In this document: positions 2,418-55,795 of the stretch, piece by piece
How the letters are laid out: every line of letters starts with the position of its first letter
Position numbering within the stretch: position 1 is the first letter of the stretch
Sequence record: OL631480
Strand: one strand, 5' to 3'
DNA length: 64,000 nucleotides
Origin: Escherichia phage ECML-123-2
The notes under the pieces: model-generated
What the model saw: the letters and a program-made list of their open reading frames with translations, nothing else
What the model was told of the DNA's origin: nothing
The model's database searches: none
Program-made: the position numbers and the translations under genes

Positions 2418-2447
2418 ATTATACCACATCCTTGTGGTAAAGTAAAC
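2418..2447 (-). promoter_or_regulatory. T4-type early promoter (minus strand: GTTTAC, 18 bp, TATAAT)
   Basis: minus-strand reading GTTTACtttaccacaaggatgtggTATAAT, about 25 bp upstream of the rIIA.1 start. Confidence 0.5.
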
Positions 2448-4264
2448 TACTGGCTCATCCATTCTTTACGAAGGTCAGCATTATCTCCCATGAGCATTTC
2501 AAAAAGCTCTTTCCAGTTCTCAGGAAGTTTAACAACATCATATACTGGGTTTTGAATCATCTCACGATATTCAGATTTTTCCAAAGAGCCAAGTCCTTTA
2601 ATATAACGGATGCTATGTTTAGGTAGAGCATCTTTGGCACTCTCATATTCAGCGACTGTATAAAACCATTCTTGTTTTTTACCGACCTGAGCGATGATTA
2701 CAGGAGTTTTGACAAAGCGAATTCGTCCTTGCTCAAACAATTCTGGCCAATTACTAAAAAACCCGAGCAGAGAAGGATAAATGCTTCCTAGACCATCATG
2801 GTCAGCATCGGTCATAATAGCAATATTATGATAATTCAAGTTTTCAGCTTTTTCACCAAGAACTAATCCAGTGATTGCGCAAATATCAAACAGTTCTTTG
2901 TTTTTAAGCATGTCAGCATATGACATACCCCAACTGTTGAGAACTTTACCACGTAATGGATAACCACCGTGAAGTTCTTTATCACGAACATCAATAAGAT
3001 ATCCGATAGCCGAATCACCCTCAGTCAAGAAAAGAGTAGTGTCAGCATCTTTACCACAAAGATTCGCTTTGATATGTTTATGAACCTTAGCTTTAGAAGC
3101 CTTTTTAGCTGCTTTAGTTTCTGCTGCTTTTTCTGCCGCCAATTTACGAGCCAAAGCAGCTTCAATAATCGGCATTAGAATTGCTTCATTATTTAGAATA
3201 GCACGTGAAATCTTTTTAGCATCAAGCTGAATATGACTACGGATTTCACCAAATGGAGAAGTCAAACGCTCTTTAGTTTGAGAATCAAATCGCATGTTTT
3301 TCATATCACGAACAAACATAACGATAGTCAAACATTCTTTAACACGTGCTTTAGTTACATCAATTTTGAACTTACGTTTGATTTGTGGAATAAGGTCTTC
3401 ACAAATATCATCCATAACACAGTCAATGTGATGGCCACCATTCTTAGTATGAATGTTATTAACGTATGTTAATTGACGAAAACCATCCGGTGAACGACCA
3501 ACCGCAATAGAACAATTTTCTTGTTCTTGAACAATAGCATGCTCATCATATTGGCGTGCATATTTCTTAAAATTGCCCTGAACCTTTTTACCATTAAAGG
3601 TAAATTGAATATCAGGATAAACTACTGCGAGTGTCTGGAGACGGTCCAGTGTAATGTCAAGATAAACCTGAGACAGCTCATTAGTTTCAAATGACATAAA
3701 ATCAGGAATGAAAGTAACACGAGTTCCTTTCCATTTTCCAGGAATATCTTCCCATGATTTATTTTCCATGCCATTTGAACAACGAACTACAATATTATTT
3801 TGACCATCACCAGTTTCACCGACAAACATCACAGAAAAAATGTTTGTCAAACTAGAACCAACACCATTCATACCGCCAGTGACACGTTCTTTATCATCAC
3901 CAAAGTTACCACCTGCTTTTGGAATAGTCCATGCAGCAACTGGACCAGGAATTTCTTCACCGGTAGGTGTTTTAACCATCGCTTGTGGAATACCGCGACC
4001 GTTATCTTCAACTGTTACCTGATTATTTTTAATGGTAACATTAATTTTATTTGCGAATTTAAACTTAGTACGAATACCTTCATCTACTGAGTTATCGATA
4101 ATTTCATCAATAAGCTTAACAAGACCAGGTACATACTGAACACTTTCCCATTTACCAAACAGAAAGCGCTCATGCATTTCATTAGCAGAAGAGCCAATAT
4201 ACATGCCGCTACGCTTTTTGATATGTTCAATATCGCTCAGAATTTTAATTTCATTCTTAATCAT
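2447..4264 (-). CDS. 39: DNA topoisomerase II large subunit, genes 39 and 60 fused in one ORF
   Basis: ORF starts MIKNEIKILSDIEHIKKRSGMYIGS (GHKL ATPase, GyrB-like); about 605 aa is roughly T4 gp39 plus gp60; track start is GTG, first ATG at 4264. Confidence 0.92.
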   Translation of the reverse strand: MIKNEIKILSDIEHIKKRSGMYIGSSANEMHERFLFGKWESVQYVPGLVKLIDEIIDNSVDEGIRTKFKFANKINVTIKNNQVTVEDNGRGIPQAMVKTPTGEEIPGPVAAWTIPKAGGNFGDDKERVTGGMNGVGSSLTNIFSVMFVGETGDGQNNIVVRCSNGMENKSWEDIPGKWKGTRVTFIPDFMSFETNELSQVYLDITLDRLQTLAVVYPDIQFTFNGKKVQGNFKKYARQYDEHAIVQEQENCSIAVGRSPDGFRQLTYVNNIHTKNGGHHIDCVMDDICEDLIPQIKRKFKIDVTKARVKECLTIVMFVRDMKNMRFDSQTKERLTSPFGEIRSHIQLDAKKISRAILNNEAILMPIIEAALARKLAAEKAAETKAAKKASKAKVHKHIKANLCGKDADTTLFLTEGDSAIGYLIDVRDKELHGGYPLRGKVLNSWGMSYADMLKNKELFDICAITGLVLGEKAENLNYHNIAIMTDADHDGLGSIYPSLLGFFSNWPELFEQGRIRFVKTPVIIAQVGKKQEWFYTVAEYESAKDALPKHSIRYIKGLGSLEKSEYREMIQNPVYDVVKLPENWKELFEMLMGDNADLRKEWMSQ

Positions 4265-15569: not shown

Positions 15570-15599
15570 TTTAACCAACAAGACTACTATACCATAGTC
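15570..15599 (-). promoter_or_regulatory. T4-type early promoter
   Basis: minus GTTTACaagctgacaagactatggTATAGT, with inverted repeat caagacta/tagtcttg around the -10. Confidence 0.5.
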
Positions 15600-15614
15600 T
15601 TGTCAGCTTGTAAA

Positions 15615-43557: not shown

Positions 43558-43587
43558 ATTATACCACATCCTTGTGGCAAAGTAAAC
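43558..43587 (-). promoter_or_regulatory. T4-type early promoter, near-identical to the rIIA.1 promoter
   Basis: minus GTTTACtttgccacaaggatgtggTATAAT. Confidence 0.5.
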
Positions 43588-46878: not shown

Positions 46879-46967
46879 TCACCAGTTTAATTCTAGTCAT
46901 CTTTTTAATGGCAGTCCATATAATCTATTTCTGAACTGCCTTTTTGTCATAGAAGTCCTCTTATGAA

Positions 46968-47936
46968 TTATTTCAGAAGAGTAACCTCAGCAATTTCTTC
47001 CCAACCGTTTTTGTCGGTCATAATAAAGTCAGCAAGATAAAGAGCAGTACGCAGTGAAACATTGCGTAAACGATTAACATTAACTTTCATCCATGATAAT
47101 GCTTTATAAGTTTCTTCATCAGAAAGACCGCGCTTTTGCATCATGTCAGTTGAAAGAATAACATCTTCAACCCTGACCATAATTTCTTCATTAGTGTGAA
47201 CACCCAAATCCAAATAAACCGAGCGGGACACTAATGCTTGTAAATGTGGAGCAAGTTTAGTACCACGGTCTAATTCGCGGTCAATGTCAACGTTTGTGAT
47301 AAAAACAATCGTTCCTTTAAATTCAAACTCACGCTCAATGCCTTTTTCTTCTAAGTAAGAAGACGCAGTGCTCCAGCAGACTTTACGGGTCTCTCCGGTG
47401 TCCAGAGCAGCTTTCAGAAGATTAAGAATGTCCATATCAGAGAAAACATCCACATCATCAATCAAAAGGACAGAATTCTCTTCACGATTATTCCAAAGCT
47501 GTTCATAAAGACCAATACCAGAGATTTTACCATTAATGCTTTTATATTCAATGTATCCAATATCATTTGCTTTATTTAAAGCTTTATCTAAAGAATACGT
47601 TTTACCAATGCCTGCCGCACCAGAGATAATTAATGAACGAATGTTTCCGTTAATAATACCATTCGTCATCATTCCCATAACATTAAATCTTTTATTAATG
47701 CGGGTTTTCATATCTTCATACGATTCTTTAACTTCTTCAACTTTTACACCATCATATGAAATGTCTGATTTGTAAACCCAAACACCGCGACGTTTACCGT
47801 CAATTTCAACAAAAACTTTACCATCTCCTTGTGCATCTACTGGAGCATTATCTGGGAACCATTCGCCTAAGAGCTCAAAAGTTCCAGAGATTTCTTTACC
47901 GAAGTAGATACCCTTATTGATAGTTACAGTTTTCAT
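46968..47936 (-). CDS. P-loop NTPase (AAA-like), nrdC.10 position
   Basis: 322 aa from ATG at 47936; Walker A GAAGIGKT, Walker B VLLIDDVD; own early promoter. Confidence 0.65.
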   Translation of the reverse strand: MKTVTINKGIYFGKEISGTFELLGEWFPDNAPVDAQGDGKVFVEIDGKRRGVWVYKSDISYDGVKVEEVKESYEDMKTRINKRFNVMGMMTNGIINGNIRSLIISGAAGIGKTYSLDKALNKANDIGYIEYKSINGKISGIGLYEQLWNNREENSVLLIDDVDVFSDMDILNLLKAALDTGETRKVCWSTASSYLEEKGIEREFEFKGTIVFITNVDIDRELDRGTKLAPHLQALVSRSVYLDLGVHTNEEIMVRVEDVILSTDMMQKRGLSDEETYKALSWMKVNVNRLRNVSLRTALYLADFIMTDKNGWEEIAEVTLLK

Positions 47937-47970
47937 TTTATTCTCCAAATCCGTATCAGTTGATAGTTGT

Positions 47971-48000
47971 ATAGTACCATAAAGCTTTATGCTTGTAAAC
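47971..48000 (-). promoter_or_regulatory. T4-type early promoter (conserved family member)
   Basis: minus GTTTACaagcataaagctttatggTACTAT, inside the longer track ORF. Confidence 0.5.
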
Positions 48001-48028
48001 AATTTTGTGAAAAAATTTTTGAAATAAA

Positions 48029-48052
48029 AAAAGGGAGCCCGAAGGCTCCCTA
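48029..48052 (-). terminator. UUCG-tetraloop terminator after the NTase-like gene
   Basis: gggagcccgaaggctccc followed by a T-run on the minus strand. Confidence 0.55.
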
Positions 48053-49066
48053 TCATTTATAATAACTTCGGTGGTTTTCAAGATAAACCCTCTCAAGGAA
48101 GTCATCCCAAAAACCCATGTCTACTTTTTGCTGCATACCGTTCTTAGAAGCTTCAGTAGATGCTGCTTCTACTTGATCGACCACATCTTCCAAAAACTCT
48201 TGAACCGTTTTAAATGGATGTTTACCCAACTTCACGTCGAGAATAAATGGAGCATCTTGGAGTGGATAAACCAAGTCACCAGTTTTGTAAATTTCCAATA
48301 GTTGGAGTCCACCACGGCAAGCATGACTCATAGCTTTCCAGTCAATACCTTCATTGGCTTCGGCCTTACGAGCACGTTCACCGTATTCAGCATCTAATTT
48401 GTTCAGTGACTGCTTAAGCTCAATAAGAGAAAGCGTTGTCTGATATTTACGACCCAACACTGTGTAGAACGTCTGTGGGCCTGTTTTCTCATGATTATGG
48501 AACACCCATTCACAGAATTCGTTTTCTGGAAGACGATGCTTAATATCTTCAACTTTAGTACGACGCTGCTTAATAGAACCATCTTCTTGGTAATCAACCC
48601 ATTGCTCAGGGATTTGATTAACTACTTTCAATACATCACGTAATGCAGCCAAACGAGAACCCTTAACGCCGTATTTAGAAGCTTGCTTACGGACATATCC
48701 TAAATAGGATTTCATGTTAGTCGTATAAAAACGAGAACGGTTGTCTTGAATAAACTTCCACACATCAGGCAAATCAGATTTAACCACTAGTTCAGGTGGA
48801 GTGTGAAGCATATCTAACGCTACAGTTTCACCATCTGCTGCTAATTTAAAGAAATATTTAAGACTGTATAGTTCATGGTCAATATCATCTTTAGTGTTTT
48901 TAGATGATGTGTTGTTAGTGTTTTTACTCATGTGCTCTTTAACATTTCCGATAAGAATATCACGAGCAGGAGGAACAAAGATTTCTTTAAAATCTACATC
49001 AGATTCTGGGGTAGAAGTTCCATAAAGATGACTACCAAAATAGCTTTTCATTACTGTTTTCATCAT
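48053..49066 (-). CDS. predicted nucleotidyltransferase (Pol-beta-like fold), nrdC.11 position
   Basis: 337 aa; N-terminal FGSHLYGTSTPESDVDF fits the GS-x(9-13)-DxD NTase signature. Confidence 0.6.
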   Translation of the reverse strand: MMKTVMKSYFGSHLYGTSTPESDVDFKEIFVPPARDILIGNVKEHMSKNTNNTSSKNTKDDIDHELYSLKYFFKLAADGETVALDMLHTPPELVVKSDLPDVWKFIQDNRSRFYTTNMKSYLGYVRKQASKYGVKGSRLAALRDVLKVVNQIPEQWVDYQEDGSIKQRRTKVEDIKHRLPENEFCEWVFHNHEKTGPQTFYTVLGRKYQTTLSLIELKQSLNKLDAEYGERARKAEANEGIDWKAMSHACRGGLQLLEIYKTGDLVYPLQDAPFILDVKLGKHPFKTVQEFLEDVVDQVEAASTEASKNGMQQKVDMGFWDDFLERVYLENHRSYYK

Positions 49067-49524
49067 TCAGCCTTATATTCAATAACAGGACATACTTTAG
49101 CTTTACGAGCTTTTAAAAATTCAACGATAATCGATTTCTTGGGTTGAATAGGAGGTAAACCTTTATACGCCCTATCAATATTTTCTACGTGTAAAGCATA
49201 ATCCTTTTTCCATTTATAATCTTTATATTTTTCACGCAGTTGTGCAGGAATAACAAATGAACCGATAATAAGTAAAACAAGCAAAATGGCAAGTATAAAT
49301 GCTGATGGAATAAGAGTCCATAAACTACCAAAAATAAGCCATTTCTGTATGATTTCTGCGCAGATGATAGTTAGACCTACGAGTATAGTACATCCGAAAA
49401 AAGAAACGAAAAATGTAGGGATAACAATAGACCAAAAGTATGCGCACAGCGTCTTAGGTCGTTGCCATTCATCGTTAAACAATTTGAATAATTTATAGTG
49501 CCAAGAGTTTTCATTAATAATCAT
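49063..49524 (-). CDS. membrane protein
   Basis: 153 aa with two to three predicted TM helices. Confidence 0.55.
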   Translation of the reverse strand: MIINENSWHYKLFKLFNDEWQRPKTLCAYFWSIVIPTFFVSFFGCTILVGLTIICAEIIQKWLIFGSLWTLIPSAFILAILLVLLIIGSFVIPAQLREKYKDYKWKKDYALHVENIDRAYKGLPPIQPKKSIIVEFLKARKAKVCPVIEYKAE

Positions 49525-49526
49525 AA

Positions 49527-50048
49527 TTATCCTTTCATTGAAGGTGTAACAGTTGTTAAATACTTAATCATAGCTTCAGCTTCTGATTTTGATAATGAAA
49601 TTTCTTCATTGTTTTGACGAATAGAAATAAAATCCGGATGACGGTCACCACCAGCTTTTAAAACACACATATAAGTATCAGTTTCATCTTCAATATCTGA
49701 AATGATTGAAGCAGTTCCACATGAATGTGGTTTTTGATAAATCAATACAGCTTTTCTTCCACCGTTTGACTGTTCATAAACTTTTAACACATCAAACAAA
49801 TCGCTTCTTTTATCAATAGCTAAGATGTTGTTTTCATCTTCAATATTAAATCCTTCGGATACTTCATAAAGTGTCACCCATAAATCACCAATATCAATAA
49901 CAGCGTTCACTTTTCCATGACTTTCAAGAGCATTACAAATTTTCTTAATTTCATCATAACTCATTTTAATAATATCATCTCCTTGAATAAGGAAGATGTC
50001 ATTTTTAAATTCAACACGAATTAAACCACTTCCACTTGAAATAAACAT
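49527..50048 (-). CDS. hypothetical protein (paralog pair member A)
   Basis: 173 aa, C-terminus SKSEAEAMIKYLTTVTPSMKG. Confidence 0.55.
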   Translation of the reverse strand: MFISSGSGLIRVEFKNDIFLIQGDDIIKMSYDEIKKICNALESHGKVNAVIDIGDLWVTLYEVSEGFNIEDENNILAIDKRSDLFDVLKVYEQSNGGRKAVLIYQKPHSCGTASIISDIEDETDTYMCVLKAGGDRHPDFISIRQNNEEISLSKSEAEAMIKYLTTVTPSMKG

Positions 50049-50054
50049 ATTTCC

Positions 50055-50612
50055 TCACTTTGAAATCATAGTTGGAATGACAGAATCGAGATAAGTCTTT
50101 AGCGCAATAGCTTCGTCTTTGGTAAATGTGACAATATACGATCGAAAATCATCAATTTGACGAATAGTTAAGACATCACCATCTTCATAGCATTTTGATA
50201 CGTTTAAAACAGTTTCATCATTCTGATTGCAAGCGTTAGTAATAATAGCATTGCAATTTTTGAGCCATTTTAAACTATGTTTTCTTTCATTAGAATAATA
50301 AAAATATTTAATCTTATCTATAAAACTATCCCAATGGATAACTGATAAACACATTGACTCACTTTTAATATTAAATCCTGGGCATGAAGAATAAAAATGA
50401 ATTTTGTGCTCATCATTGATGCTTACTATTTTATCAGTATAAGGATATTCAATTTGGGTTAAATGAATGATTTCACTAGGCGTAAAATATAGCATATCGT
50501 CTTCTTGTGTCAAACGATACATATTATTTACTTTTTCTATAGCTAATTCACCAAAAAGCGGACTAACTTCTAATACTAATCGTTTCATATTGATTCTCTT
50601 CGACTCACCCAC
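50055..50612 (-). CDS. hypothetical protein (paralog pair member B)
   Basis: 185 aa, C-terminus TKDEAIALKTYLDSVIPTMISK. Confidence 0.55.
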   Translation of the reverse strand: MGESKRINMKRLVLEVSPLFGELAIEKVNNMYRLTQEDDMLYFTPSEIIHLTQIEYPYTDKIVSINDEHKIHFYSSCPGFNIKSESMCLSVIHWDSFIDKIKYFYYSNERKHSLKWLKNCNAIITNACNQNDETVLNVSKCYEDGDVLTIRQIDDFRSYIVTFTKDEAIALKTYLDSVIPTMISK

Positions 50613-50747
50613 AATTACATACTCCTTTGAATAATATCAATAATGTTGTTCACCAGATTATAAGTAAACATTGGATAATTATATTGAATCATCACATACA
50701 CAACAAACAAAACTTTCATTCTCTTCTCCTTGGCAGTTGACAAGATT

Positions 50748-50777
50748 ACTATATCATAATCTTGTCAACTTGTAAAC
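50748..50777 (-). promoter_or_regulatory. T4-type early promoter with palindrome
   Basis: minus GTTTACaagttgacaagattatgaTATAGT inside inverted repeat gttgacaagatta/taatcttgtcaac. Confidence 0.45.
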
Positions 50778-50779
50778 CA

Positions 50780-50953
50780 TTAAATGACGTTTTCAATAAA
50801 ATTCTGAAGCTTTGTGTGAGCATCAACCATGATTTTCATTTCTTCTTTGGCGAAAGCTGTACCTCTTTCCCGAGAAGAACACTCATAGTCAGAAACTGCA
50901 TTAGCATATTCTTCAATTAGTTTCATTAAAAACATCTGCTTTTCAGTTTTCAT
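50780..50953 (-). CDS. small hypothetical protein (57 aa), not in ORF track
   Basis: MKTEKQMFLMKLIEEYANAVSDYECSSRERG...; start overlaps upstream stop. Confidence 0.4.
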   Translation of the reverse strand: MKTEKQMFLMKLIEEYANAVSDYECSSRERGTAFAKEEMKIMVDAHTKLQNFIENVI

Positions 50954-51137
50954 TGTTCCACCTAATCATTTCAAGATATTGAACTAACTTAGCTTTAGAT
51001 TTATCCAAATCCTTTTTAGCTGCTTCTATACCATCGTATGAATATCCTTCACAATGCTCAACTGCTAATTGATATGAATCTATTTCAATATCACGTGCTA
51101 ATTTAATGATTTTTTCAAACTGTTCGCGTGTTAGCAT
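50943..51137 (-). CDS. hypothetical protein
   Basis: 64-aa ORF. Confidence 0.5.
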   Translation of the reverse strand: MLTREQFEKIIKLARDIEIDSYQLAVEHCEGYSYDGIEAAKKDLDKSKAKLVQYLEMIRWNNEN

Positions 51138-51139
51138 AC

Positions 51140-51379
51140 TTACACTCTCGTATTATGATCGATAATTTCATCAAGAAACATATCTAACGCTTCTATAGCA
51201 TTATCAACTTTAGCTTCAAGTTCTTCAGCGCCTTTATTTGCAATGCCTGCCGAAAACCAAGCAAAGTCACTAAGTTCCTCATCTGCTTTGCGAATTAAAG
51301 CTACCAATTCTTTAATTTTATCTGCTTGTTCAATGCTAGTCATTATTCCACCACATATGAAAGAGAGAATATTGCACAC
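51140..51379 (-). CDS. hypothetical protein
   Basis: 79-aa ORF. Confidence 0.5.
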
Positions 51380-51531
51380 GCCATATGAGTTGCAGCTTCA
51401 TCACACATATCATAACGTTTCTTAAGAAGTTCTACAAGTTCTTCACTAGTAACTTCATCCATGTCGACGAAAAAATCACCATTAATGATGACGTAGATAT
51501 TTCCTTCTTGATTGAGTGCTTCAATTTTCAT
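51343..51531 (-). CDS. hypothetical protein (62 aa from internal ATG)
   Basis: ATG at 51531 preceded by SD gaggagaacatc. Confidence 0.45.
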
Positions 51532-51559
51532 GATGTTCTCCTCTTTATCCGACGGTTGT

Positions 51560-51589
51560 ATAGTATCACAGCTCAAATTGAAAGTAAAC
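51560..51589 (-). promoter_or_regulatory. T4-type early promoter
   Basis: minus GTTTACtttcaatttgagctgtgaTACTAT. Confidence 0.5.
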
Positions 51590-51602
51590 TGGTAAAATGA
51601 AA

Positions 51603-51625
51603 AAAGTCTCCCGAAGGAGACTAAT
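51603..51625 (-). terminator. UUCG-tetraloop terminator
   Basis: agtctcccgaaggagact. Confidence 0.55.
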
Positions 51626-51626
51626 G

Positions 51627-52013
51627 TTATTCGAGGGAAAGAAGATATTTGCTCTGGTAAAACATCCCAGTAATATCATCTATCGTGCTTTGAATGGCTG
51701 GAGGCATTTCTTTATAAATGCTGTTAGATTGGTCTAGTATGCGATCAATCATTTTAATTGTGTCGGTAGGAAGTTTACTGGCATCTGGAATAGAAGGCGT
51801 GTATTTTCTACCAGAATACCCCAAATATTGCTCACCAAATTTATCAATCAAATCTGGCAACTCAGAGAAAATAAAATCGTATGCTTTGTGTCTAGCATAA
51901 CTTTTAGTTTCAAAATGCGCAGAATGAAAATAAGCTTGTGCAGCCATTAATAAACCTAAGTATTCATCTGCCTTTGAAGGTTTTCCACTTTGTGAAAAGT
52001 CGCTGAATTTCAT
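51627..52013 (-). CDS. hypothetical protein (rI.-1 position)
   Basis: 128-aa ORF directly downstream of rI. Confidence 0.55.
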
Positions 52014-52303
52014 TCAGTCTCCAATTTAATGTTCATAATTCTAGCGTATGATTGTGCCATCTCCGCGCCTCGCTCTATACATTCAAAATCGGAAGAGCAC
52101 GGGTCATTTTTATAAGTCGTTCGCATAAAACTATAGAACTGTTCAGATGATTCTACGCTTTTGTTTTCAAAAAGCATATAAACGTGTCTAATACCAGATT
52201 CCATAAATTTATCAAAATGAGGATCGACATTCGCTTCAATTGGTGGAGATAAAGCAAACGCTAATCCTAGCATGGCAAATAGTGCCGTTGCTTTTAAGGC
52301 CAT
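52010..52303 (-). CDS. rI: RI lysis-inhibition regulator (antiholin)
   Basis: 97 aa MALKATALFAMLGLAFALSPPIEANVDPHFDKFMESGIRHVYMLFENKSVESSEQFY... matches recalled T4 RI. Confidence 0.85.
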   Translation of the reverse strand: MALKATALFAMLGLAFALSPPIEANVDPHFDKFMESGIRHVYMLFENKSVESSEQFYSFMRTTYKNDPCSSDFECIERGAEMAQSYARIMNIKLETE

Positions 52304-52315
52304 AAAGGCCTCCTA

Positions 52316-52528
52316 TCATTTTTGTCCTGTATTTACTTTATGCCGATGCACGGCCTTAACTTTATCAAGGTATTTTTCAAAATTTCGCAATCTAGTATAG
52401 TCTGCCGGAGATTGGTTGAGTGATACTTCTCGACGCAAAGCTGAAATGATATTTCCAACTTCCCTACGAATTTCATCTAATTGAAGAACAGTAAGATTGC
52501 GAAGTTGCTTTTCAGTTAATTGTAGCAT
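52316..52528 (-). CDS. hypothetical protein (rI.1 position)
   Basis: 70-aa ORF. Confidence 0.5.
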
Positions 52529-52570
52529 ATATACCCCTTTAGTTAGATAAACCTATTTATAACTTTTGCA

Positions 52571-53152
52571 CTAACCGAGCTTTTTAGTTAATTCATTCCA
52601 ATGTTTTCTACACAAAGAAACATAAATTTCATCACCAATACAGATTTGATTACCTTCTTTAACTGGTGTTCCATCTTCCATTAATCGAGCTGTCATAATA
52701 GCTTTTTTACCACAATGACAAACTGCCTTTAGTTCAATAAGTTTATCTGCAATCGCCAAAAGTTCTTTAGAACCTTCAAATAATTTTCCAGCGAAATCAG
52801 TCCTTAGCCCATAAGCCATAACAGGAACATTATATGTATCAACAATTCGACTTAATTGATGCACCTGTTCAGTTTTTAAAAACTGAGCTTCATCTACAAA
52901 TACACAATGAATATCTTTTTGTGCTTCAGCCCATTTATAGAACTCAAAAATATCCATATCATCCGTAATAATATTCGCTTCCTGCTTAATTCCAATGCGA
53001 GAAACGACTTCACAGACAGAATCGCGAGTATCAATAGCAGGCTTAAGAACTAATACACCCATTCCGCGTTCTTTATAATTATGTGCAGCAGTCAAAAGAG
53101 AAGCAGATTTTCCAGCATTCATTGCTGCGTAAGTAAAAATTAAACTCGCCAT
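52571..53152 (-). CDS. tk: thymidine kinase
   Basis: 193 aa, P-loop MNAGKS, zinc-binding CHCGKKA...; same size as T4 Tk. Confidence 0.93.
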   Translation of the reverse strand: MASLIFTYAAMNAGKSASLLTAAHNYKERGMGVLVLKPAIDTRDSVCEVVSRIGIKQEANIITDDMDIFEFYKWAEAQKDIHCVFVDEAQFLKTEQVHQLSRIVDTYNVPVMAYGLRTDFAGKLFEGSKELLAIADKLIELKAVCHCGKKAIMTARLMEDGTPVKEGNQICIGDEIYVSLCRKHWNELTKKLG

Positions 53153-55765: not shown

Positions 55766-55795
55766 ATTATACCACAGTCAAGAGGAAAAGTAAAC
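55766..55795 (-). promoter_or_regulatory. T4-type early promoter for regB
   Basis: minus GTTTACttttcctcttgactgtggTATAAT. Confidence 0.5.

Follow-up and report, generated by a model that had tools for sequence, protein, structure and literature searches.

A MobD.1-family (T4_y05I) gene pair at the mobD locus of a Tequatrovirus genome

Two adjacent open reading frames of Escherichia phage ECML-123-2 (sequence record OL631480) encode proteins of 173 and 185 amino acids whose C-terminal ends resemble each other. Are the two proteins related over their whole length, where do their genes stand relative to phage T4, and what might such a pair do? We addressed these questions in a 64,000-nucleotide stretch of the genome, referred to here as the window. 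A sequence-only reading had proposed that the pair is duplicated, occupies the region where T4 carries a homing endonuclease and small accessory ORFs, and serves an accessory function under diversification. Both ORFs are present as described, and the C-terminal ends quoted for them are correct. The genes and their domains are located as follows.

49527–50048, minus strand: 173-aa paralog, RB32ORF097c type, assigned by ORF, Pfam and PHROG; T4 has no copy
~49758–50048, minus strand: N-domain of the 173-aa protein (HMM scan)
~49530–49757, minus strand: C-domain of the 173-aa protein (HMM scan)
50055–50612, minus strand: almost certain mobD.1 ortholog, 185 aa, assigned by ORF and by Pfam T4_y05I_N and T4_y05I_C
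~50280–50573, minus strand: N-domain of the 185-aa protein (HMM scan)
~50061–50285, minus strand: C-domain of the 185-aa protein (HMM scan)

The two proteins are homologous from end to end, a stronger relationship than had been claimed. A single BLASTP comparison aligned them over 176 columns with 27% identity and 49% positives (E=2e-9). The similarity is not confined to the last residues: the N-domains alone align with E=4e-6, and the proteins without the C-terminal tail with E=4.9e-6. Both contain the Pfam domain T4_y05I_N (PF24449; E=1e-34 and 119.6 bits for the 173-aa protein, E=3.6e-39 and 133.8 bits for the 185-aa protein, gathering score 24.9 bits) and the domain T4_y05I_C (PF24448; E=1.6e-23 and 83.3 bits, and E=1.4e-20 and 73.8 bits, respectively, gathering score 27 bits). 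T4 MobD.1 (NP_049711), the founding member of the family, has the same two domains and scores 73.7 bits with PF24448. Both proteins also match PHROG 1502 end to end, and both genes lie at the locus typical of the T4_y05I family, flanked by the small ORFs of the rI/mobD.x group on one side and by nrdC.11 on the other. We conclude with near certainty that they are full-length, anciently diverged paralogs of the T4 MobD.1 family in Tequatrovirus.

An HMM scan of all six frames found exactly two y05I copies in the 64-kb window, namely these two genes, and no third copy elsewhere in it. T4 nrdC.8 (175 aa), considered as a third member of the family, has no Pfam match. DUF7189 is matched by the 173-aa protein only, at 23.4 bits, which is under the gathering score of 27 bits; there is no DUF7189 ORF in this window, and its small upstream ORFs contain neither DUF7189 nor y05I domains, three of them being DUF7438 paralogs. 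A search of the pair against NCBIfam gave no matches. The start codon of the 185-aa gene is uncertain, with two candidates: a GTG at 50612, preceded 9 nt upstream by GGAG, yields 185 aa, and an ATG at 50588 yields 177 aa.

The tail that first drew attention to the pair is where the conservation of the family is concentrated. In an alignment of 29 diverse members, Glu156, Tyr163 and Leu164 are invariant and Val167, Pro169 and Met171 nearly so, and almost all invariant or near-invariant columns fall inside the C-terminal motif. The quoted motif is thus the signature of the whole family.

How does the locus compare with that of T4? The window belongs to Tequatrovirus, and this locus is 99.3% identical to that of vB_EcoM-CHD16UKE1, HP3 and similar phages. 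The T4 gene order is rI, rI.-1, mobD.5 to mobD.2, mobD.1, mobD (an HNH homing endonuclease) and nrdC.11. MobD has been described as a free-standing HNH homing endonuclease encoded between mobD.1 and nrdC.11 (PMC2988022), and it gave a weak HNH match in our Pfam search. At 85.8% identity to the product of T4 mobD.1 (tblastn), the 185-aa protein is almost certainly the MobD.1 ortholog. DNA homology to T4 extends over 46901–49067 and 50030–52808 (blastn), and two features define the difference between the phages.

49068–50029, minus strand: segment absent from T4, which carries the mobD HNH cassette in its place (blastn, T4 annotation)
50030–50048, minus strand: first 19 nt of the 173-aa gene, kept in T4 as a vestige between mobD.1 and mobD

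Just after mobD.1, T4 retains a remnant of the 173-aa gene, made up of its GAGG site and the initial 19 nt of coding sequence (codons MFISSG), which identifies the mobD state of T4 as the derived one. It is near certain that the mobD cassette displaced the 173-aa gene and the neighboring gene for a 153-aa membrane protein in the T4 lineage. In Mosigvirus a20, a 74%-identical mobD separates the membrane gene from nrdC.11 and no gene is missing, which places the endonuclease's own insertion point beside nrdC.11 and makes the deletion specific to T4. T4-type mobD is present in 47 records at ≥95% identity and in 51 more at 60–80%. The proposed placement at the T4 homing-endonuclease position is therefore correct for the 173-aa gene, which shares the mobD slot with the 153-aa gene that the proposal had left out, but not for the 185-aa gene, which is T4's own mobD.1. 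Neither paralog contains, by Pfam, the HNH or GIY-YIG nuclease domain that a homing-endonuclease cassette would have.

The paralog pair is an ordinary arrangement that is already annotated in hundreds of T4-like phage genomes. The distribution among related phages was determined by tblastn. The 173-aa gene occurs at ≥90% identity in 433 phage records, its other matches being cross-matches of ~25–28% to MobD.1 of other genera and frameshifted T2 copies. MobD.1 occurs in 728 records (413 at ≥80%, ~300 at 43–49% and some at 30–35%). Among 1.84 billion representative proteins, an exhaustive profile search returned only 28 clusters of the y05I family, and all IMG/VR matches to the family lie on contigs of 155–175 kb; the family was found here in T4-like phage contexts only. 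In an HMM survey of all fetched loci, tandem full-length pairs were seen in Tequatrovirus, and a single full-length family gene was seen in SF and a20 (Mosigvirus according to their records) and in JS98/VR-type phages, which we take to be Dhakavirus. More distant T4-like phages carry one mini-protein consisting of the C-domain only, or a tandem pair of them (loci L004–L006, L033 and L035).

A recent tandem duplication is ruled out by the divergence of the paralogs and by their phylogeny. Their identity is 27%, compared with 44–49% between MobD.1 proteins of different genera or alleles, and the 173 clade falls outside all MobD.1 orthologs of three genera in neighbour-joining trees of the whole protein, the N-domain and the C-domain. 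The 173-aa gene is thus, as far as the trees and identities indicate, an old paralog or a xenolog.

The pair is tightly packed with its neighbors, and the flanking elements are as follows.

50735–50776, minus strand: promoter plus hairpin, PeSL-like element, with a perfect 14-bp inverted repeat (50735–50748/50757–50770)
50776–50748, minus strand: early-promoter-like site TTTACA-17-TATAGT, a consensus match upstream of mobD.2 and mobD.1
50615–50719, minus strand: mobD.2-like 34-aa ORF, first after the early promoter, equivalent to a 105-nt CDS in T4 and HP3
49063–49524, minus strand: basic (pI 9.4) 153-aa membrane protein, RB32ORF096c type, phrog_944
48053–49066, minus strand: nrdC.11, RlaP/Pol-beta-type nucleotidyltransferase, last gene of the unit (PF10127, E=2.4e-11; phrog_388)
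48032–48051, minus strand: intrinsic-terminator-like hairpin and T-run, directly after the nrdC.11 stop codon

The gap between mobD.1 and the 173-aa gene is 6 nt and contains the GAGG site, the stop codon of the 173-aa gene lies 2 nt from the start of the 153-aa gene, and the 153-aa gene and nrdC.11 overlap in ATGA. The promoter-early stem-loop (PeSL) shuffling element of T4/PST type, in which a promoter is accompanied by a stem-loop beside variable genes, has the promoter consensus TTTACW-N17-TAYWAT (PMC4122927), which the site in the window matches at 11 of 12 positions; the hairpin overlapping this promoter has a free energy of -22.8 kcal/mol (z=-5.7). All 17 matches to the pattern TTTACW-N17-TAYWRT in the window, where 0.63 would be expected, are on the minus (coding) strand; downstream of the site at 50776–50748, the next copy is at 47999–47971. 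Terminator-like elements are found at both ends of the five-gene unit, and the JB75 record annotates a terminator at the place equivalent to 48032–48051. A search of 48900–52700 against Rfam found no known RNA family. Given this packing, the promoter pattern and the terminator-like hairpin, mobD.2, mobD.1, the 173-aa gene, the 153-aa gene and nrdC.11 appear to be transcribed early as a single unit. The nrdC.11 segment is 96% identical to T4 at the nucleotide level.

Linkage of the family to the downstream membrane gene is near-obligate. The 153-aa protein has hydrophobic segments over residues ~25–98 and a basic C-terminal tail. With T4 as the sole exception, each fetched locus encodes a homolog of it immediately after the last family gene. 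The loci span Tequatro-, Mosig- and Dhakavirus-type phages as well as more distant T4-like phages. At locus L004 the module is duplicated, and the pairing of family gene and membrane gene is kept twice.

Within allelic classes, Nei–Gojobori estimates of dN/dS are 0.16 in the 173-aa gene, compared in 8 phages, and 0.14 in T4-type mobD.1. The ratio is likewise 0.16 in the membrane gene but 0.05 in nrdC.11, and the C-domains have values of 0.15–0.33. Both paralogs are under moderate purifying selection, not diversifying substitution; what generates variation is the exchange of cassettes, together with gene loss and fusion, rather than point changes. The proposed diversification of a duplicated pair is borne out in the form of exchange, loss and fusion, whereas the duplication is not recent and the substitutions are under constraint. 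Three sites in the pair mark the exchanges.

50190–50613, minus strand: exchangeable 5′ cassette of mobD.1 (its 5′ two-thirds), where homology to PE37 is lost
50210–50219, minus strand: GATGAAACTG, 10-nt microhomology in mobD.1, crossover site of hybrid gene P0011
49679–49688, minus strand: GATGAAACTG, 10-nt microhomology in the 173-aa gene, partner of 50210–50219

The PE37 allele of mobD.1 has 49% protein identity to the one in the window, and its flanks have 95–97% DNA identity. The 3′ 124 nt of mobD.1 (50066–50189) are conserved even in comparison with Mosigvirus SF. Loss is seen in T2, where both genes are frameshifted in two independent records, and in RB14, where mobD.1 is frameshifted in a single record. 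The apparent 57% allele of T2 is a tblastn artefact of these frameshifts, and the truly divergent allele is the metagenomic P0010. Fusion is seen in P0011, which joins the N-terminal part of MobD.1 to the C-terminal part of the 173-aa protein and is found on 6 contigs, the three shown coming from three different runs. The hybrid sequence indicates that P0011 arose by deletion between the shared 10-nt copies of GATGAAACTG.

The accessory nature of the pair is supported by these T2 frameshifts, by the loss of the 173-aa gene from T4 and by a viable genome-reduced T4 that lacks nrdC.11–mobD.3 (PMC9825161), which implies that the family is dispensable in the laboratory.

To relate the sequences to structure, we examined AlphaFold2 models of both proteins. 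The mean pLDDT is 85.2 for the 173-aa and 86.8 for the 185-aa protein, residues 1–7 of the latter being below 50. Both models have one topology, with the same order of secondary-structure elements: an N-domain made of two units of four strands and a helix, followed by a C-domain of five strands and a helix. All 12 family members tested are acidic (pI 4.2–5.8, net charge -3 to -22), and none of these 12 has a hydrophobic segment. Both paralogs therefore display a soluble, acidic, two-domain α/β architecture. Foldseek comparison of both models with the PDB found no solved relative (best E=0.03 and 0.0016, TM≤0.35, rmsd ~17–23 Å), and sequence and profile searches of the PDB gave no matches for the family. 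Against BFVD, the 173-aa model retrieved only family members and uncharacterised phage proteins.

Profile comparison reveals an internal repeat, whose two units lie in the 173-aa gene at these positions.

49926–50024, minus strand: repeat unit A of the 173-aa protein, residues 9–41, comprising strands, a Q-x-D-D turn, a strand and a helix
49557–49673, minus strand: repeat unit A′ of the 173-aa protein, residues 126–164, the conserved C-domain core ending in the signature helix

Alignment of the sub-alignment of the first N-domain unit (N1) with that of the C-domain by hhalign gave a probability of 92.5%, E=4.7e-7 and a score of 33.1, the best score among 30 column-shuffled control alignments being 13.1. 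This shows, at the level of profiles, that each paralog holds two copies of one ancestral strand–turn–strand–helix unit of ~35 aa, the first N-terminal unit and the C-terminal core, with a consensus near L.V....d.i.ltQ.dd.i.fT..Ea..l..yL. The middle N-domain unit (N2), considered as a third repeat, gave no hhalign signal. The same ~35-aa unit occurs as stand-alone proteins of ~70 aa in more distant T4-like phages.

What might the pair do? Literature searches on mobD.1, y05I, nrdC.11 and RB32 with mobD found no functional data, and we found no experiment or homology tying the family to any activity. From the membrane-protein homolog that comes after the last of the family genes at all fetched loci but that of T4, we tentatively propose that members of the family are soluble early proteins, not essential to the phage, that partner the 153-aa membrane protein, a reading that we favor while rating it somewhat below an even chance. 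The paralogs would act through protein–protein binding rather than DNA binding, which we suggest with low confidence. Gene order and opposite charge suggest that the invariant C-terminal unit may dock onto, or assemble with, the co-transcribed basic membrane protein, and the variable N-terminal region could then confer target specificity. Two non-redundant paralogs might thereby equip a single membrane anchor with two specificities, serving host takeover, exclusion or counter-defence, with variation supplied by cassette swapping, loss and paralog fusion. Two observations bear on this proposal from the other side. Phages with the hybrid gene have a membrane gene with a different central allele next to an unchanged C-domain, and simple co-variation is thus not seen. 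In T4, MobD.1 persists although the membrane protein is gone; MobD.1 at least may be independent of that partner, or the T4 copy may be a relic.

A bolder form of the proposal, which we regard as improbable though worth stating, is that the y05I C-terminal unit and the ~150-aa membrane protein form a conserved two-component early module of T4-like phages with a fold absent from the PDB, in which, in Tequatroviruses, two non-redundant soluble paralogs share one anchor and address different host or competitor targets, for example in counter-defence or superinfection exclusion. If so, the exchangeable N-terminal cassette of MobD.1 would be a specificity determinant in an arms race. PADLOC profiles for anti-phage defence and counter-defence gave no match for the pair at E≤0.1.

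Alternatively, the paralogs could heterodimerise through the conserved C-terminal unit, making the pair itself the functional unit. The adjacency of the genes 6 nt apart and the invariant helix motif common to both proteins fit this idea, as does the internal repeat, which suggests a pseudo-dimeric architecture; tandem pairs have also arisen independently as adjacent C-only mini-proteins (L004–L006, L033 and L035). Mosigvirus- and Dhakavirus-type phages and T4, however, manage with a single copy, and some phages have one hybrid gene in place of the pair, and we consider a functional complex of this kind unlikely.

Less probable again is that the paralogs are transcription factors that bind phage or host DNA or RNA polymerase and tune early or middle transcription. 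PF24449 and PF24448 carry the name 'y05I-like putative transcription factor', the genes appear to be early, and Foldseek shows a weak, non-significant resemblance to LytTR and to sliding-clamp-like β/α repeats. T4 encodes several small acidic polymerase-binding regulators, which also counts in favor of such a role. Yet the models match no DNA-binding domain above noise in Foldseek (TM≤0.35), the proteins have no HTH, wHTH or RHH match in Pfam at E≤1, and our literature search found no support for the Pfam label, which is thus unsupported here. The net negative charge of every member tested (-3 to -22) argues against direct DNA binding, although not against binding to RNA polymerase.

The C-terminal conservation could also be a constraint on DNA, reflecting a recombination junction or the flank of a homing endonuclease, and not on protein function. 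The mosaic boundary relative to PE37 and SF does fall inside mobD.1 near 50190, with only the 3′ 124 nt conserved; the T4 mobD cassette ends 19 nt into the next gene; and the hybrid crossover is nearby. This explanation is nevertheless very unlikely. The same peptide motif recurs in the stand-alone proteins of distant phages, where similarity at the DNA level is no longer detectable, the motif of the 173-aa protein has ~45% residue identity to that of MobD.1 with DNA identity limited to in-register patches of 19–21 nt, and the C-domain dN/dS quoted above implies constraint at the protein level. Finally, the pair might be a duplication without function that is decaying within a hyperplastic region, a notion to which the frameshifts of both genes in T2 and of mobD.1 in RB14, and the deletion in T4, might point. 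It is largely refuted by dN/dS (~0.15) and by conservation (intact genes ≥90% identical in 433 records, gene order kept across genera), as well as by confident, matching predicted folds, and we give it hardly any credence.

The existence of the pair was known before this analysis. The family is curated in Pfam and PHROG, and hundreds of sequenced T4-like phages carry the pair. In the RB14 GenBank record, the 173-aa type is annotated "similar to mobD.1" and the 153-aa type (RB32ORF096c) "replaces mobD", which means that the paralogy had already been flagged by its annotators. Our analysis adds the internal repeat, the near-obligate linkage to the membrane gene, the apparent early five-gene operon and the hybrid gene at a 10-nt microhomology. 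The finding of the pair matters little in itself; its residual value is that of a well-delimited case of evolution in T4 hyperplastic regions, illustrating the replacement of two genes by an endonuclease cassette that left a 19-nt vestige, intragenic cassette exchange and the fusion of paralogs at a 10-nt microhomology. Conserved across T4-like genera, the module of an acidic soluble protein and a small membrane protein is also a candidate for host-takeover or counter-defence activity.

Compared with known systems, the pair shares a genomic slot with T4 MobD, but it is unrelated to the endonuclease in sequence and has no HNH motif. Stand-alone y05I C-domain mini-proteins (phrog_7763 and phrog_10804) and DUF7189 share with the pair the C-terminal strand–strand–helix unit and its motif TK.EA.AL..YLN.VIPTM. 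The genes for the mini-proteins share the locus of the pair and precede the same membrane gene, sometimes in tandem, but their products lack the N-terminal domain and are ~70–87 aa in total. T4 MobD.1 resembles the 185-aa protein in having the same two domains, encoded at the same place downstream of mobD.2. The 173-aa protein agrees with T4 MobD.1 in domain architecture and predicted topology, but its identity to any MobD.1 is only 27–28% and it falls in a separate clade. Its gene is that of RB32ORF097c and RB14ORF98, with 93–95% identity to RB32 and RB14 and allelic differences only.

The 173-aa gene and the adjacent 185-aa mobD.1 ortholog share two in-register DNA repeats, which coincide with the GFNI and IRQ motifs and have been retained although protein identity is 27%. 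Directly upstream of this pair lies a second tandem paralog array, a trio of small genes assigned to Pfam DUF7438.

49834-49854 / 50359-50379, 173-aa gene versus mobD.1, in-register DNA repeat, 21 nt, 86%
49606-49624 / 50149-50167, 173-aa gene versus mobD.1, in-register DNA repeat, 19 nt, 84%
50780-50953, minus strand, mobD.2a equivalent, 57 aa, Pfam DUF7438
50943-51137, minus strand, mobD.3 equivalent, 64 aa, Pfam DUF7438
51140-51379, minus strand, mobD.4 equivalent, 79 aa, Pfam DUF7438

An entire module is duplicated in tandem in the distant T4-like phage OQ927978.1 (L004; 2902-4960 and 5535-6987 of that locus); it comprises Phage_T4_Y05J, small ORFs, Phage_tudor, y05I_C and a membrane protein. 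Frameshifts disrupt both family genes in phage T2, with an identical pattern of ORF fragmentation in two independent records (L011, L015). The 5′ end of the T2 membrane gene, the neighbor downstream of the 173-aa gene, appears to lie in another frame.

Mosigvirus a20 (L022) carries a homolog of the homing endonuclease gene mobD (2501-3283 of its locus, 74% identity) between the membrane gene and nrdC.11. Nothing was deleted, and the arrangement therefore reveals the endonuclease insertion point; it shows an independent invasion of another genus. Translating the aligned T4 sequence between mobD.1 and mobD (L001, 13210-13283), we found that the relic start of the 173-aa gene begins a 23-codon ORF, MFISSGTDMCYKCKAKLNETKNQ, whose stop codon overlaps the annotated mobD ATG (ATGA). 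Because of this overlap, mobD translation in T4 may be coupled to the vestigial start.

A scan of the whole window for the T4/PST early-promoter pattern TTTACW-N17-TAYWRT returned 17 sites, where chance alone would give 0.63; every one of them lies on the minus strand. From their sequence, these sites probably map the early transcription starts of the 64-kb early-gene region. Examples are:

2418-2446, minus strand, pattern match
43558-43586, minus strand, pattern match
47971-47999, minus strand, pattern match
51560-51588, minus strand, pattern match
55766-55794, minus strand, pattern match

The promoter at 47999-47971 and the nrdC.11 terminator both fall within the upstream part of one listed ORF:

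46968-48056, minus strand, nrdC.10 ORF as listed, 362 aa

The PHROG match of its product, which also has weak AAA/STAND NTPase matches, starts at residue 41 (MKTVTINKG...), making the internal ATG there the probable true nrdC.10 start.

One promoter-like site lies upstream of mobD.2 and mobD.1:

50735-50776, minus strand, early-promoter-like TTTACA-17-TATAGT inside a perfect 14-bp inverted repeat

Computed folding gives an RNA hairpin of -22.8 kcal/mol (z=-5.7). A very similar near-twin, TTTACAAGCTGACAAGACTATGGTATAGT, occurs at 15586-15614. The 50735-50776 element resembles the PeSL promoter/stem-loop shuffling elements of T4-type phages.
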